From the NCBI GenBank assembly GCA_034667465.1, contig JAXDJV010000013.1, positions 188,303-252,302 of the forward strand: 64,000 nucleotides of DNA, given 5' to 3'. Positions 2 through 61,131 of the stretch are shown in pieces. Position 1 is the first letter of the stretch. Every line of letters begins with the position of its first letter. Made by a program: the position numbers and the translations under genes. The stretch comes from Acidobacteriota bacterium. GTDB lineage: Bacteria; Acidobacteriota; Thermoanaerobaculia; Gp7-AA8. The notes beneath the pieces are model-generated. The model was not told the DNA's origin. It saw only the letters and a program-made list of their open reading frames with translations, and ran no database searches.

Positions 2-598
2 GCCTCTACGCAGGCCGTTTCGACCGGCGCATATCGCGCGGTCGAATTCATCAAAGCGAACATCAAGCTCGACAGCGGCGCGACGAAAGCGTCGATCGAA
101 GACTCGAAAGCCGTCGTTGCCATCTGCACGAAGTACGCGCAGAAAGGCATGTTCAACATCTTCCTCACCATCTTCTTCTCGACGCTGGCCTTCGCCTGCT
201 TCGAGCCGTTCTTCTTCATCGGTTACCTGATCTCGATTGCACTCTTCGGTCTCTACCAGGCGATCTTCATGGCGAACGCCGGCGGCGCCTGGGACAACGC
301 AAAGAAGATCGTCGAGACGGAGCTGAAAGAGAAGGGCACGCCGCTGCACGCTGCATGCGTCGTCGGCGACACGGTCGGCGATCCGTTCAAGGACACGTCG
401 TCGGTTGCGATGAACCCGGTCATCAAATTCACGACGCTTTTCGGCCTCCTCGCCGTCGAGCTCGCGGTGGAGATGACGAAGAACGGACAGGGCAGTCTGC
501 TGCGCGTTCTTTCCGCGGTTTTCTTCATCATCTCGATGGTGTTCGTCTACCGCTCGTTTTACGGCATGCGCATCGGTTCGACCGAAGCTCAGGCGTAG
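2..598 (+). CDS. hppA: H+-translocating pyrophosphatase (HppA), C-terminal fragment; the 5' end lies outside the window
   Basis: The frame is open from position 2. The translation contains 'GGAWDNAKKIVE...GDTVGDPFKDTSSVAMNPVIKF', the conserved C-terminal core of membrane PPases, followed by C-terminal TM helices. Confidence 0.85.
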   Translation, partial: ASTQAVSTGAYRAVEFIKANIKLDSGATKASIEDSKAVVAICTKYAQKGMFNIFLTIFFSTLAFACFEPFFFIGYLISIALFGLYQAIFMANAGGAWDNAKKIVETELKEKGTPLHAACVVGDTVGDPFKDTSSVAMNPVIKFTTLFGLLAVELAVEMTKNGQGSLLRVLSAVFFIISMVFVYRSFYGMRIGSTEAQA

Positions 599-621
599 CT
601 CGCAAAAGATCGATCCAATCC

Positions 622-652
622 GGCCCCGGGCGACTGTGCCCGGGGCTTTTTG
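622..652 (+). terminator. Rho-independent terminator after hppA
   Basis: GC stem ccccgggc-gactgt-gcccgggg followed by a T-run (cttttt), about 25 nt after the stop. Confidence 0.6.
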
Positions 653-775
653 TTGCATGCGTGACTCTCATGAGGGACACATTTTTCGCCTGCTTGCATG
701 TGTCTGTGAGGTTTATGCACACTGCACGACGTCCAGGCCAAATTTTCGCGACCGCCCTCCGGTTCTGAGCAAAAG

Positions 776-26166: not shown

Positions 26167-26799
26167 ATGTCGCTCCTCGCTCAACGCAAGAACCCCAGTG
26201 CGCCGCCTCGCCTCGACGGAAAAGAGCTGCTCGTCGGTCCCGACCCGAGCGTCTCCCGCGTGAAGGGCGTGATGTTCGGCGCGCGCAAACAGTTTCTCGT
26301 CGACACCGTCGGCGAGGAAGGCCTGGCCCGCGTCGTAGCGCGGCTTTCACCGCGCACCGCCGGCTACGTGAAGACGCCGCTGGCGTCGAGCTGGTGCGAG
26401 TTCGAATCGCTGGTGGAGCTCGATCGCGCGATCTACGACGAGCTGAAAGCAAAGCATCCGAACGTGCTCGCGCTGATCGGCGCCGCATCCGCGGAGCTCG
26501 GCATCGGCAAGGTGTACAAATCGCTCGACAGCACGGAACTGCTGAAGTTCCTGGAGAGCATCGCGCTCTTTCACACGCAGTATCAGAAGTTCGGCCGCGT
26601 GAAGTTCGAGAAGACGCCGAATGGCGGCCGAATGATCTACACCGACTACCCCTGCTACTCCCCCATCTTCTGCGCCAGCGCCCTCGGCTTCTTCCTCGAA
26701 TCAATCCTCCGCCACGGCGGAACCGATCCGAGCGTGAACGAGACGAGATGTCAGACGCATGGGGATGCTTCTTGTACGTTTGAGATGGCCTGGAGATGA
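26167..26799 (+). CDS. V4R (4-vinyl reductase)-like domain protein, DUF2378-like
   Basis: C-terminal 'ETRCQTHGDASCTFEMAW' matches the V4R C..GD..C.F motif. The listed ORF start (25720) is an Arg-rich artefact. In-frame ATG at 26167 follows the previous stop. Confidence 0.5.
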   Translation: MSLLAQRKNPSAPPRLDGKELLVGPDPSVSRVKGVMFGARKQFLVDTVGEEGLARVVARLSPRTAGYVKTPLASSWCEFESLVELDRAIYDELKAKHPNVLALIGAASAELGIGKVYKSLDSTELLKFLESIALFHTQYQKFGRVKFEKTPNGGRMIYTDYPCYSPIFCASALGFFLESILRHGGTDPSVNETRCQTHGDASCTFEMAWR

Positions 26800-56712: not shown

Positions 56713-58209
56713 CTACGCCGTCGCCTCTGCCGCCACCGGCTTCGCGATCTTCATCAGCGCGTAATAGACGACGAGCGCCACGCCGAAGCCGACGAACCAC
56801 GCGTAGTCGTACAACGTCTTCATCGACGGCACGAATCTCCCGATCCACGCGAAGAAACAGGCGATCACCGTCGCGACGACCGCGCGCCAGTTCCATCCCT
56901 TCGCGTACCGATACTCGCCGGTTTCGCGATAGAGATCGGGCAGCACGAGGTTCTTGTCGCGGATCAGCCAGTAATCGGCGATGAGCACGCCGGCGATCGA
57001 GCCGAGACCTCCGGAGTAAGCGACCAGCCAGTCGAAGATGTAGCCGGAAGGATCGGCGATCAGGCGCCAGGGCTGCATGATGATGCCGAGGATGCCGGTG
57101 ATCAGACCGCCGGTCCGGAATGAGATCCATTTCGGGAACGCGTTCGCGAAATCGTTCGCGGGCGAGACCACATTCGCGGCGATGTTCACCGACAGTGTCG
57201 CGACCACGATCGTGAACATCGAGATTGCGATCACCCACACCTGCGTGAAGTGGCCGACGAGCACGATCGGATCCCACAGCTCGCTCATCTTTGACTGCGG
57301 ATAGATGACGACGGCGGCGGAGGTGATGATCACTCCCATCGCGGCGAAGAGCGTCATCGTCGACGGCAGCGCGACCGACTGTCCGATGACCTGCTCGCGC
57401 TGGCTCCGCCCGAAGCGGGTGAAGTCAGGCATGTTCAGCGACAGCGTCGCCCAGAAACCGATCATGCCGGTCAGTGACGGAATGAAGACCGGCCTGAACT
57501 CCGCCCACGTCCGAAGTTTGCCGGGATGATCGATGAGATATCCGAGTCCGCCGGCGCGCCAGACCGCCCACGCGAGGAGCAGCGCCGTCATGACGAGCAC
57601 GAATGGCGCGGCCCAGTTCTCGACGCGGCGCAGCAGATCCATGCCGCGATAGATGATGTAGATGTTCATCCCCCAGAAGAGCATGAATGAGAGCCATTGC
57701 GTCGTGGGGTGACCGCCGAATGAACCGAGGAGGTTCGTCCAGCCGGGGATGATCGCGCCGAAAAATGTTTGCAGCGCCTGGCCGCCGATCCACGCCTGAA
57801 TGCCGAACCAGCCGCAGGCGACGATCGCCCGCATCAGCGCCGGCAGATTCGAGCCGTACGTGCCGTAGGCGGCGCGCGCGAAGACGGGAAACGGGATGCC
57901 GTACTTCGTGCCGGGATGCGAGTTGAGGAGGATCGGGATGAGCACGATCACGTTGCCGAGGAGGATGGTGAGGAGCGCCTGCCACCAGTTCATGCCTGAG
58001 CTGATGAGAGCCGACGACATCATGTACGTCGGGATGCAGTGCGCCATCGAGATCCAGAGCGCGGCGTAGTTGTACGTAGTCCAGTCGCGTTTCGCGACCG
58101 GCACCGGCGCGAGGTCTTCGCTGTAGAGCGGACTCGATTCGATCGAGGAGCGGTCGCGCAATTCGACGCGGCCATCGTCGTGCTGGATCACTTCGGCTGT
58201 GTTCGGCAT
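56713..58209 (-). CDS. NCS1 family nucleobase:cation symporter (cytosine/purine/uracil/thiamine/allantoin permease family)
   Basis: Internal ATG 'MPNTAEVIQHDDGRVELRDRSSIESSPLYSEDLAPVPVAKRDWTTYNYAALWISMAH' is the characteristic NCS1 N-terminus. 12 TM helices. The upstream part of the listed ORF is Arg-rich artefact. Confidence 0.8.
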   Translation of the reverse strand: MPNTAEVIQHDDGRVELRDRSSIESSPLYSEDLAPVPVAKRDWTTYNYAALWISMAHCIPTYMMSSALISSGMNWWQALLTILLGNVIVLIPILLNSHPGTKYGIPFPVFARAAYGTYGSNLPALMRAIVACGWFGIQAWIGGQALQTFFGAIIPGWTNLLGSFGGHPTTQWLSFMLFWGMNIYIIYRGMDLLRRVENWAAPFVLVMTALLLAWAVWRAGGLGYLIDHPGKLRTWAEFRPVFIPSLTGMIGFWATLSLNMPDFTRFGRSQREQVIGQSVALPSTMTLFAAMGVIITSAAVVIYPQSKMSELWDPIVLVGHFTQVWVIAISMFTIVVATLSVNIAANVVSPANDFANAFPKWISFRTGGLITGILGIIMQPWRLIADPSGYIFDWLVAYSGGLGSIAGVLIADYWLIRDKNLVLPDLYRETGEYRYAKGWNWRAVVATVIACFFAWIGRFVPSMKTLYDYAWFVGFGVALVVYYALMKIAKPVAAEATA

Positions 58210-58251
58210 GGCGGCGATTGTAGCGCGGCGCTGAACGTACAATCGCCGTTC

Positions 58252-59946
58252 ATGAAACGACTGCTGCTCGCCGCTCTGATCACCCTCGCCGCCTCGCTTC
58301 CCGCATTCGCCGCGTCGAAAAAAACGCCGGCGAAACCGTTCTCCGTCGTCGAAGCTTCGATCTCCGACATGCAGGCGGCGCTGCGCGAAGGCCGCGTCAC
58401 ATCGCGCGAGCTCGTGCAGCAATACCTCACGCGCATCGCGACGTATGACGCGAAGCTGCACGCGGTCATCACCGTCAATCCTCGCGCGCTCGAAGAGGCT
58501 GACGAACGCGATCGCGAGCGCGCCTCCGGGCAGATTCGCGGTCCGCTGCACGGCATTCCGGTCGCGCTGAAAGACAACATTCATACGACAGACATGCCGA
58601 CCACCGGCGGCGCGCTGGCGTTCGCCGAGCTCGTGCCGCCGTATGAAGCGACGATCACGAAGAACCTCCGCGACGCCGGCGCAATCATCATCGCCAAGAC
58701 GCAGATGACCGAGCTCGCGAACTGGGTGGCCGGCAATCCGTCGATGCCGAACAACTACAACTCGCTGAACGGCTATGGATTCAATCCGTACGATCCGCGC
58801 CGCGATCCGCGCGAGGCGACGAACGACGGACGTCCCGTGCTCAACACCGGCGGCTCGAGCTCCGGCGCCGGAACCGCGGCGAGTTTCTGGGCGGCGAACG
58901 TCGGGACGGAAACGTCGGGCTCGATTCTCAGTCCGTCGAATCAGAACATGCTCGCCGCGGTGAAGCCGACCGTCGGCCGCATCTCGCGCTACGGCGTCAT
59001 TCCGATCACCGCCGATCAGGACACGCCCGGCCCGATGGCGAAGTTCGTCACCGACGCCGCGATCATGCTCGGCGCACTTGAAAGCGCATCGCCCGATCCG
59101 AACGATCCGGCGACGAAGAACTGCACGCCGGTGCGCGACTACACGCAGTTCCTGAAGAAGGACGGACTGAAAGGCGCGCGCATCGGCATTCCGCGCGCCG
59201 GCTACTACGACAAGATCACGCTGCCAGGCACCGAGAAGCCGCGCGGCGGTCTGAATCCCGACCAGACGAAAGCGATCAACGAGGCGATCGAAGTGCTGAA
59301 GCAGCAGGGCGCGGTGATCGTCGACCCGGCTGACATTCCGTCGGTCGTCGACAAGGATCCGAAGAACAACTTCTGGCTCTGGGGCGTCTGCGGCGACATG
59401 GACGACGTCAAAGAGAAGAAGTGCTCCGTCGATCTCGCGTACGGAATGGAGCGCGATTTCAACGCGTGGCTGAAATCACTCGGCGAGAAAGCGCCGGTGA
59501 AGTCGCTGACCGATCTGCGCGAATGGAACACGAATCATTCGAAGAGCGGCGCGATCAAGTACGGGCAGTCACTGCTCGACATCTCCGACGCGATGGATCA
59601 GGAGCTGTTCCGCGCGCGCTACGAATCGGATCGCGCGAACGATCTTCGTCTCTCCGCGACGCATGGAATCGATGAGGTGATGAAGGCGCAGAAGCTCGAT
59701 GCGCTGCTGTTTCCCGGACCGGGCGGTGCGTCGATCGCAGCACGTCCCGGCTATCCAACTGTCATCGTACCGTTCGCAACGATTCCGAATGCGCCGACGC
59801 CGGCGTTCCCCGATTCGTTCAAAGCGAAACCGCAGCCGTACGGCGTCAGCTTCACCGGAATGGCCTGCAGCGAGCCGACGCTGCTGCGGCTCGCGTACGC
59901 GTTCGAACAGGCGACGAAGCGCCGCGTCGCGCCGCAGCTACCGTAA
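58252..59946 (+). CDS. Secreted amidase (amidase signature family)
   Basis: Signal peptide 'MKRLLLAALITLAASLPAFAA'. 'GGSSSGAGTAAS' AS-family Ser-cisSer-Lys core. 'GIPVALKDNIHT'. Confidence 0.85.
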   Translation: MKRLLLAALITLAASLPAFAASKKTPAKPFSVVEASISDMQAALREGRVTSRELVQQYLTRIATYDAKLHAVITVNPRALEEADERDRERASGQIRGPLHGIPVALKDNIHTTDMPTTGGALAFAELVPPYEATITKNLRDAGAIIIAKTQMTELANWVAGNPSMPNNYNSLNGYGFNPYDPRRDPREATNDGRPVLNTGGSSSGAGTAASFWAANVGTETSGSILSPSNQNMLAAVKPTVGRISRYGVIPITADQDTPGPMAKFVTDAAIMLGALESASPDPNDPATKNCTPVRDYTQFLKKDGLKGARIGIPRAGYYDKITLPGTEKPRGGLNPDQTKAINEAIEVLKQQGAVIVDPADIPSVVDKDPKNNFWLWGVCGDMDDVKEKKCSVDLAYGMERDFNAWLKSLGEKAPVKSLTDLREWNTNHSKSGAIKYGQSLLDISDAMDQELFRARYESDRANDLRLSATHGIDEVMKAQKLDALLFPGPGGASIAARPGYPTVIVPFATIPNAPTPAFPDSFKAKPQPYGVSFTGMACSEPTLLRLAYAFEQATKRRVAPQLP

Positions 59947-60040
59947 CGTCATCCCGAGCGTAGCGAGGGATCCGGGTGGGCGGGGCGAACCGCTCTCTCG
60001 TGCCCCGCCCGCCCGGATCCCTCGCTACGCTCGGGATGAC
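59944..60040. terminator. Very long GC-rich perfect hairpin (about 40-nt arms) immediately after the amidase stop
   Basis: gtcatcccgagcgtagcgagggatccgggtgggcggggc ... gccccgcccgcccggatccctcgctacgctcgggatgac. No clean T-run, so it is REP/terminator-like. Confidence 0.55.
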
Positions 60041-60059
60041 TTCTTGCAGTAAGCTCTGC

Positions 60060-60192
60060 TCGGCTGGGGAGTAGCTACCCTTCACCGGGCTGATCCGTCG
60101 TCAACACGTTGCGAGAGCTTCCGGCGGATCAATCGCGCTGAACGCGCGAAGGCGAGACCACCGCGATTAACCATCGTGGGGTCTCGCTTTTT
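60060..60192 (+). ncRNA. yybP-ykoY (manganese) riboswitch-like leader with an intrinsic terminator, upstream of TerC
   Basis: 'GGGGAGUAGC' (60066..60075) and 'GUCGUCAACACGUUGCGAGAGC' resemble the conserved yybP-ykoY segments. Expression-platform hairpin gcgagacc...ggtctcgc plus ttttt at 60152..60192. The downstream gene is a TerC family member, the canonical regulated family. Confidence 0.6.
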
Positions 60193-60219
60193 CATTTGCG
60201 CGGCTCCACCGGAGGAACT

Positions 60220-61131
60220 GTGCAACTCGGTTTGTGGCCCTGGGTTTTCTTCAATCTCGCTGTCCTCGCTCTCCTCGCCCTCGACCTTGGCGTGTTCCAT
60301 CGCAAGGTCCATGTCGTTTCGGTGCGCGATGCGCTCGGCTGGAGCGCGGTCTGGATCGCGCTCTCGCTCGCGTTCAACGCGCTCATCTACTTCTGGCTCG
60401 GCAGCGGGCCGGCGCTCGAGTTCCTCACCGGGTACGTCATCGAGAAGTCGCTCAGCGTCGACAACATCTTTGTCATCGTGCTGATCTTCGCCTTCTTCCG
60501 CGTACCGGCGGAGCTGCAGCACCGCGTTCTCTTCTGGGGCATCCTCGGCGCGCTGGTCATGCGCGGCGGATTCATCGCCGGCGGCGCCGCGCTGCTCGAA
60601 CACTTCCACTGGGTGATCTACATCTTCGGCGGATTTCTCGTCATCACCGGCATTCGGATGGCGCTCGAGCGCGACGAGTCGTTCGATCCCGCCGACAGCA
60701 TGATGATGCGGATCGCGAAACGGATCCTGCCGGTGTCGAGCGATTACGACGGCCAGCGTTTCTTCACGCGCGTGAACGGACGCCGCGCCGCGACGCCGCT
60801 CCTGCTCGCGCTGCTGATCGTCGAATCGACCGATCTGATTTTCGCCGTCGATTCGATCCCGGCCATCTTCGCGGTGACGTCGAATCCGTTCATCGTTTAC
60901 ACGTCGAACGTCTGCGCGATCCTCGGTCTCCGCTCGCTCTACTTCGCACTGGCCGGGATGATGTCGAAGTTCGTCTACCTGAAGCTCGGCCTGTCGGCGG
61001 TGCTGACGTTCGTCGGCGTGAAGATGCTCCTCGCCGGCGTCTGGCCGATGCCGACGCTCGTGTCGCTCGGCGTGATCATCGGCATCCTCGCGATCGCGGT
61101 GATCGCATCGATCGTGCGAACGAGGCAGTGA
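60220..61131 (+). CDS. TerC family integral membrane protein (Alx/YkoY-like)
   Basis: 'LWPWVFFNLAVLALLALDLGVFHRK'. 'EKSLSVDNIFVIVLIF'. 'LIVESTDLIFAVDSIPAIFAV'. A GTG at 60220 has a GGAGGA Shine-Dalgarno; the listed ORF starts at a TTG at 60196 inside the terminator T-run. Confidence 0.85.
   Translation: MQLGLWPWVFFNLAVLALLALDLGVFHRKVHVVSVRDALGWSAVWIALSLAFNALIYFWLGSGPALEFLTGYVIEKSLSVDNIFVIVLIFAFFRVPAELQHRVLFWGILGALVMRGGFIAGGAALLEHFHWVIYIFGGFLVITGIRMALERDESFDPADSMMMRIAKRILPVSSDYDGQRFFTRVNGRRAATPLLLALLIVESTDLIFAVDSIPAIFAVTSNPFIVYTSNVCAILGLRSLYFALAGMMSKFVYLKLGLSAVLTFVGVKMLLAGVWPMPTLVSLGVIIGILAIAVIASIVRTRQ

Follow-up and report, generated by a model that had tools for sequence, protein, structure and literature searches.

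The locus described here raises the question of whether the leader of a TerC-family gene contains a yybP-ykoY-type Mn2+ riboswitch that acts through an intrinsic terminator next to the start codon, as the first-pass annotation of this DNA had proposed. The gene lies in a 64,000-nucleotide stretch of an acidobacterial contig, which is referred to below as the window. We conclude with high confidence that positions 60061-60163 form a yybP-ykoY Mn2+ aptamer and that, together with the terminator at 60150-60192, this aptamer makes up a transcriptional ON switch for an Alx-type TerC gene; the Mn2+ ligand and the direction of regulation are assigned by analogy with studied members of the family. The leader is an ordinary addition to a known riboswitch class and is biologically routine. 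It adds one Mn2+ riboswitch annotation and, for an uncultured acidobacterium, lends support to the view that its Alx-type TerC protein works in metal homeostasis.

The TerC gene and its leader

The gene call itself was upheld. The ORF is real, and its product matched PF03741 (TerC) at 178.8 bits against a cutoff of 27.8 (E=1e-52) and the NCBIfam model TIGR03718 (R_switched_Alx) at 425.4 bits against a cutoff of 246.4, with residues 5-302 of 303 aligned. As listed, the ORF runs from a TTG codon at 60196 to 61131, and the GTG codon at 60220 in the same frame is more likely to be the start. Mn export has been ascribed to E. coli Alx (PMC12153347), and given this likeness and the riboswitch linkage it is reasonable to regard the window TerC as a putative Mn exporter. 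When plasmids were searched with the protein by tblastn, all matches were remote TerC homologues (<60% identity). Among the GTDB genomes, the protein had 482 confirmed relatives, the best 80 of which were fetched; the closest among these 80 were encoded in an Acidobacteria MAG (locus L001, 95% amino acid identity) and a Thermoanaerobaculia MAG (locus L002, 74%).

In the minimum-free-energy structure from RNAfold, the Shine-Dalgarno sequence and the GTG codon are placed in a hairpin within 60196-60225 (UUGCGCGG.../...CUGUGCAA). The sequence of this hairpin is identical in L001 and is not conserved in L002, and the hairpin may be an artefact of the folded fragment ending at 60225.

Two of the leader blocks on which the riboswitch proposal rested were found as described, GGGGAGUAG at 60066-60074 and GUCAACA at 60100-60106, and UUGCGAGAG is present at 60109-60117. 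UUG..GAGAG, which had been read as a further block of this kind, is not a conserved motif; in relatives it corresponds to the variable P3.2 stem and its GNRA loop, the sequence of which is GUUGCGAAAGC in L001 and GGAGUGAAAGCUCC in L002. The block that is truly conserved on the 3′ side is GCGAGACC at 60152-60159, where only a terminator arm had been seen before. An exact GGGGAGTAG is expected by chance 0.06 times per window. A second exact copy at 26655-26663 on the minus strand was rejected as a chance occurrence; it lies antisense inside a long coding ORF and gave no match (E up to 10) to the covariance model R1 described below.

The proposed terminator was confirmed as an inverted repeat of GCGAGACC and GGUCUCGC (60180-60187) followed by UUUUU, and its hairpin proved to be longer than first described, with 10 + 7 bp and one bulged A (Table 1). 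The hairpin alone has a predicted energy of -27.5 kcal/mol (RNAfold) and is conserved in L001 and L002. A simple terminator scan of the window missed the hairpin at 60150-60192 because of the bulge. Between GGGG and the U-tract, the entire leader shows ~90% nucleotide identity in L001 and L002, the TerC protein of L002 being only 74% identical, and all of the stem substitutions in these two leaders keep or improve pairing. The rarity of GGGGAGTAG and the conservation of the leader exclude a chance origin.

Table 1. Coordinates of the leader and gene features (window positions unless a locus is named)
Feature	Position	Strand	Details
Whole aptamer	60061-60163	+	P1.1, L1, P1.2, P2, P3.1, L3, P3.2, P4
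P1.1 switch helix, 5′ strand CGGCUGG, C60064 bulged	60061-60067	+	pairs with CCACCG 60158-60163
L1, 5′ strand GGAGUA, predicted A-minor adenosine A60070	60068-60073	+	faces GAGA 60154-60157
P1.2, 5′ strand GCU	60074-60076	+	pairs with GGC 60151-60153
P2 hairpin CCC-UUCACC-GGG, short	60078-60089	+	family P2 has 6 covarying pairs
P3.1, 5′ strand UGAUCCGUCG	60091-60100	+	pairs with CGGCGGAUCA 60122-60131
L3, predicted metal-binding loop UCAACAC, candidate Mn-contacting A60103	60101-60107	+	7 nt, follows UCG/CGG pairs
P3.2 hairpin GUUGC-GAGA-GCUUC, GNRA loop, two tandem U.U mismatches	60108-60121	+	family P3.2 has 5 covarying pairs
P4 hairpin UCGCGC-UGAAC-GCGCGA	60133-60149	+	RNAfold
3′ strands of P1.2 (GGC), L1 (GAGA) and P1.1 (CCACCG)	60151-60163	+	include conserved block GCGAGACC
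Intrinsic terminator	60150-60192	+	5′ arm 60150-60167, loop 60168-60172, 3′ arm 60173-60189, U-run 60188-60192
Shine-Dalgarno GGAGGA and GTG start	60211-60222	+	60211-60216 and 60220-60222; sequence
TerC/Alx-family membrane protein gene, 303 aa	60220-61131	+	PF03741, TIGR03718
Sites of RF00080 shortfall	L081 5462-5558 and 20 metagenomic loci
Aptamers at non-transporter genes, examples	L095 194-316; L097 1113-1228; L120 5954-6061; L159 2220-2328	+; -; +; +

Family models and covariation in relatives

The first-pass annotation had named a cmsearch score below the gathering threshold of Rfam RF00080 as grounds for rejecting the riboswitch. Run on the aptamer region alone, RF00080 gave 11.0 bits where gathering is set at 45, which formally counts as a refutation, and controls show that this yardstick is unreliable here. 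No Rfam 15 family matched anywhere in the window at the gathering threshold, and a search of 401 nt at E≤10 returned only spurious miRNA-precursor matches, which arose from a palindrome upstream of the leader. As a positive control, the E. coli mntP riboswitch scored 41.6 bits with RF00080, also under 45. RF00080 accepted only 2 of 20 related aptamers, those with an exact GUCAACAUACU; these control aptamers lie upstream of MntP, P-type ATPase, GDT1 and TerC genes and all belong to the subtype with UCG/CGG pairs and a UCANNAC loop. Because mntP and 18 of the 20 aptamers fail as well, a sub-threshold RF00080 score is not evidence of absence. The gathering score is a detection threshold and not a defining feature of the family.

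Inspection of the RF00080 copy (177 positions) showed that the 5′ GGGGAGUAGC is left unpaired, that the 3′ strand of P1 is not modelled, that the conserved 3′ GCGAGACC is treated as a loop and that a long 'P4' stands at the end. The model also expects the proteobacterial P3 register GUCA/ACAUACU/.../UGGC, so the difference in P3 register between the window and mntP is penalised. The more useful lesson of this locus is one of method, as a verdict by the Rfam threshold alone would have discarded a genuine riboswitch. Since RF00080 misses the validated mntP and most members from soil phyla, negative scans for yybP-ykoY need a positive control.

We scanned metagenomes with the pattern GGGGAGTAGC-N(15-45)-TCGTCA-N(25-55)-GCGAGACC and found at least 120 loci with the same three blocks and spacing, where a rough estimate of chance matches is a handful; among the matches listed there were 119 distinct cores. 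Within the best 80 of the 482 TerC orthologue loci, an aptamer stood directly upstream of the gene in three and was lacking there in the other 77. In three more TerC loci (L034, L059 and L052), a match to R1 lay further upstream. At L023, a GGAGTAG upstream of TerC turned out not to mark an aptamer.

The pairing was then examined in a plain MAFFT alignment (A3) of 105 non-redundant metagenomic aptamers, from which the window, L001 and L002 were left out. The six-helix structure, comprising 34 pairs, was imposed on this alignment, which had not been fitted to the structure. Paired cells amounted to 84.0%, compared with 60.7% after shuffling and 31-45% when the partners were slid, and cells with double changes numbered 864 versus 336. 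The covariation score was 0.511 versus 0.165, a value that 0 of 500 shuffles reached. All six helices were thus conserved with compensatory changes in the 105 relatives, which answers in the affirmative the earlier call for conserved P1-P4 pairing. In addition, unguided RNAalifold of 17 sequences recovered P1, P1.2, a 10-bp P3.1 and a 5-bp P3.2.

Individual helices gave the same picture. The flanks of P1.1 covary, the third pair being AU in 47, UA in 41 and CG in 8 of the 105 relatives, and the third pair of P1.2 covaries likewise (CG 52, UA 30, UG 7), with U.G in the window and U-A in L002. P3.1 is a 10-bp helix that is 91% paired in the relatives and shows double changes at 7 pairs; in the window it was predicted without guidance by RNAfold, and RNAalifold also predicts it. 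The family P4 contains 4 covarying pairs in the MAFFT alignment despite its length variation.

A3 then served to train a covariance model (R1), so that the lineage of the window was excluded. R1 matched the window over its full length at 60057-60168 with 73.4 bits and E=2.7e-17 (filters off), a score that is partly by construction, the window itself containing the three exact blocks by which the training set was picked. The next best match on either strand of the 64 kb reached 12.6 bits. L002 scored 74.0 bits, and a Gemmatimonadaceae locus (L028) with the same outer blocks and different stems scored 76.9. R1 also recovered E. coli mntP, which falls outside the collection pattern, at 55.3 bits (E=1e-11). 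A sequence-only model of the same alignment gave 49.2 bits for the window and 13.5 bits for mntP; because these scores are lower, the fold adds ~24 and ~42 bits, respectively, although scores of the two kinds of model are only roughly comparable and the E-values, from short calibration, are approximate, the margins being large. The mntP match and the sequence-only comparison answer the concern that R1 merely re-detects the three collection blocks. Homology to validated members is therefore significant, as a model trained without the window lineage matches both the window and mntP. With the R1 match, the covariation of six helices and the TIGR03718 assignment, the proposal of a yybP-ykoY-type riboswitch with a terminator before TerC is supported.

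These data also bear on the alternative that there is no riboswitch at all, the hairpin and U-run serving to terminate the amidase gene upstream and GGGGAGUAG and GUCAACA being chance resemblances. This reading would fit the sub-threshold RF00080 score, the position of the hairpin downstream of the amidase stop (59946) and the failure to find a separate promoter in the window scan. It does not fit a full-length 73-bit match (E=3e-17) where the background does not exceed 12.6 bits, the covariation of all six helices in a family whose model recovers mntP, or the at least 120 metagenomic loci with the same blocks and spacing where roughly a handful would be due to chance. Moreover, conservation spans the whole aptamer and not the terminator alone. 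The amidase-terminator alternative is effectively refuted by the covariation and by the R1 matches to the window and mntP, and we give it almost no weight.

Aptamer architecture and the proposed switch

By the published definition, to which the window conforms, yybP-ykoY aptamers have two coaxial legs that meet at a four-way junction; L1 carries an A-minor adenosine, L3 forms the metal loop and P1.1 acts as the switch helix (PMC12153347, PMC6754395). In the R1 alignment, the six helices of the window form a four-way junction with the legs P1.1-L1-P1.2-P2 and P4-P3.1-L3-P3.2. L1 consists of GGAGUA opposite GAGA, followed by the CC of P1.1, and L3 is an internal loop beside conserved G-C/C-G pairs of P3.1. 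The 5′ strand of L1 is identical to the RF00080 consensus GGGGAGUAGC and to E. coli mntP, and both of these also share GUCAACA with the window. Roles of G8, G9 and A10 in L1 have been described, and the N7 of an invariant L3 adenosine contacts Mn2+ (PMC6754395); by this analogy, A60103 is a candidate for the metal-contacting adenosine of the window. Nearly all relatives have a 7-nt UCANNAC L3 loop, of which UCAACAC is the third commonest form. On the 3′ side, GAGACC lies at 60154-60159, within an AGGCGAGACC identical in mntP, and the 3′ half of L1 and P1.1 in X. oryzae is likewise GAGACC (5′-GAGACCAGGGAU-3′; PMC6754395).

The R1 alignment flagged non-canonical pairs in P1.1, P2 and P3.2 of the window. 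The aptamer may be weaker than typical because P3.2 contains two U.U mismatches, P2 has only 3 bp (4 bp in L002) and P1.1 a bulged C. A true yybP-ykoY homologue with these features might have decayed into a constitutive attenuator without a Mn2+ response, or been retuned to another cue, such as a divalent metal or metal plus pH as in E. coli alx. Such a reading would be in line with the perfect P3.2 of 62 of the 105 relatives in the aligned columns (23 of 105 have at least two mismatches), and with reports that L3 varies among members, for which affinity tuning has been proposed, and that alx couples Mn2+ to pH (PMC12153347, PMC13594968). However, the U.U pairs are kept in L001 together with the remaining aptamer (L002 has a perfect GGAGU-GAAA-GCUCC), purifying selection on the whole element is evident out to L002, and every residue is retained in L1, in L3 and at the UCG/CGG top of P3.1. 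The R1 score of the window is comparable with those of L002 and L028, and the alx aptamer works without any P2. We consider decay or retuning improbable, and a Mn2+-responsive yybP-ykoY aptamer remains the preferred reading.

The 3′ half of P1.1 (60158-60163) lies inside the 5′ arm of the terminator (60150-60167). Because this arm contains all of 60151-60163, P1 and the terminator are mutually exclusive, and the overlap matches the published antitermination mechanism (PMC6754395). The computed energies of the leader were -58.5 kcal/mol with the terminator (OFF) and -39.0 kcal/mol with the aptamer (ON). Secondary-structure energy hence favours the terminator fold, which fits a default-OFF switch with an 'inherently weak' P1.1 that needs ligand stabilisation. 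The plain RNAfold minimum-free-energy structure of the leader likewise contained the terminator, with a non-conserved alternative 5′ hairpin in place of P1 and P2; we did not count this against the aptamer because tertiary and ligand energies are outside the model.

By default, the nascent RNA would form the terminator, whose 5′ arm would capture the 3′ strands of P1.2, L1 and P1.1, and transcription would stop before TerC. At elevated cytoplasmic Mn2+, both legs are predicted to dock around the metal via L1 and L3. Mn2+ would then stabilise P1.1 and block the terminator, RNA polymerase would read through and TerC would be switched on, its product probably exporting or otherwise handling excess Mn2+. 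In single-molecule work on the X. oryzae riboswitch, Mn2+ binding stabilised P1.1 and prevented strand invasion by the terminator (PMC6754395).

The closest studied counterparts are the transcriptional Mn2+ riboswitches of X. oryzae and L. lactis, which have been crystallised (PMC6754395). They share with the window the four-way junction with two docking legs, the L1 of GGAGUA and GAGA with a 3′ strand GAGACC, the L3 with its conserved adenosine, and a weak P1.1 that has its 3′ half in common with a terminator further downstream, which provides ON-type Mn2+ antitermination (predicted in the case of the window). Unlike them, the window has a P2 of 3 bp, two U.U pairs in P3.2, a bulged C in P1.1 and an L3 of UCAACAC, and its host is an uncultured acidobacterium. 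The L. lactis aptamer (4Y1I) reportedly has an L3 of UCAAUUC and a P3 in the register seen in the window.

The E. coli mntP riboswitch (RF00080) carries identical GGGGAGUAGC, GUCAACA and AGGCGAGACC blocks and has the six-helix architecture under R1. It has been validated and crystallised, with an apo structure available (PDB 4Y1M, cited in PMC12153347). In mntP, UCA pairs with UGG, which extends P3.1 and leaves an L3 of ACAUACU, whereas P3.1 of the window ends in UCG/CGG with an L3 of UCAACAC. In addition, the mntP element precedes MntP and acts on translation, in contrast to the terminator switch upstream of TerC in the window. The E. coli alx riboswitch belongs to the same riboswitch family and controls a protein of the same subfamily, TIGR03718 R_switched_Alx. 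It differs in being translational and in having a three-way junction without P2, whereas the window has P2 and a classic terminator. The alx element, confined to Enterobacterales, links the sensing of Mn2+ to alkaline pH (PMC12153347).

Upstream context and aptamers at other genes

The amidase stop codon at 59946 lies upstream of both the terminator and the aptamer. In L001, the aptamer begins ~25 nt after the amidase stop (about 2310-2350 of L001, corresponding to 59944-60067 of the window), and a sigma-70 promoter scan of the window found none. Because of this short spacing and the lack of a sigma-70-like promoter, the riboswitch may be an intra-operon attenuator between the amidase gene and TerC; alternatively, a promoter may lie inside the 3′ end of the amidase gene.

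Between the amidase stop and the riboswitch of the window, an 87-nt near-perfect palindrome was observed at 59946-60042, with arms at ~59948-59986 and 60002-60040. It appears as a clean indel (59954-60040) relative to the sister MAG L001: window positions 57637-59953 are colinear with L001 1-2320, and 60041-63493 with L001 2322-5777. The palindrome has a single copy in the window, is absent from all 201 fetched loci and may be a MITE/REP-like element.

The difference in P3 register noted above opens a further reading, in which the window copy represents a distinct and widespread subtype with P3.1 extending to UCG/CGG and a UCANNAC L3, as opposed to the proteobacterial form with GUCA/UGGC and ACAUACU. 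Such a subtype would be systematically missed by Rfam, would perhaps have another metal affinity or selectivity, would extend its control to non-transporter genes (M48/HtpX peptidases, LysR regulators, GlgC), and might serve at this locus as an intra-operon attenuator right behind the amidase gene, preceded by the 87-nt palindrome. We hold this reading only tentatively and judge it unlikely as a whole. If it were true, the number of Mn riboswitches in Acidobacteriota, Gemmatimonadota and further soil phyla would be seriously underestimated.

Genes following the metagenomic aptamers, as assigned by targeted Pfam scans, included TerC, MntP (PF02659), P-type cation ATPase, GDT1/UPF0016 and Na/Ca exchanger genes, which is the classical yybP-ykoY regulon. 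Some aptamers were also located upstream of non-transporter genes, namely those for an M48/HtpX-type peptidase, LysR-family regulators, GlgC (glucose-1-phosphate adenylyltransferase) and Zn_peptidase_2 (examples in Table 1), and those linked to LysR form a distinct 'ccaaaGGGG...GAGACCuuugcc' subgroup. At L034 (136-232) and L059 (927-1024), the aptamer stands upstream of GDT1/UPF0016 with TerC further downstream on the same strand, a layout that suggests a riboswitch-controlled GDT1-TerC operon. Locus L153 contains two aptamers on opposite strands within 360 nt, at 621-720 (+) and 259-369 (-), which apparently drive divergent genes.
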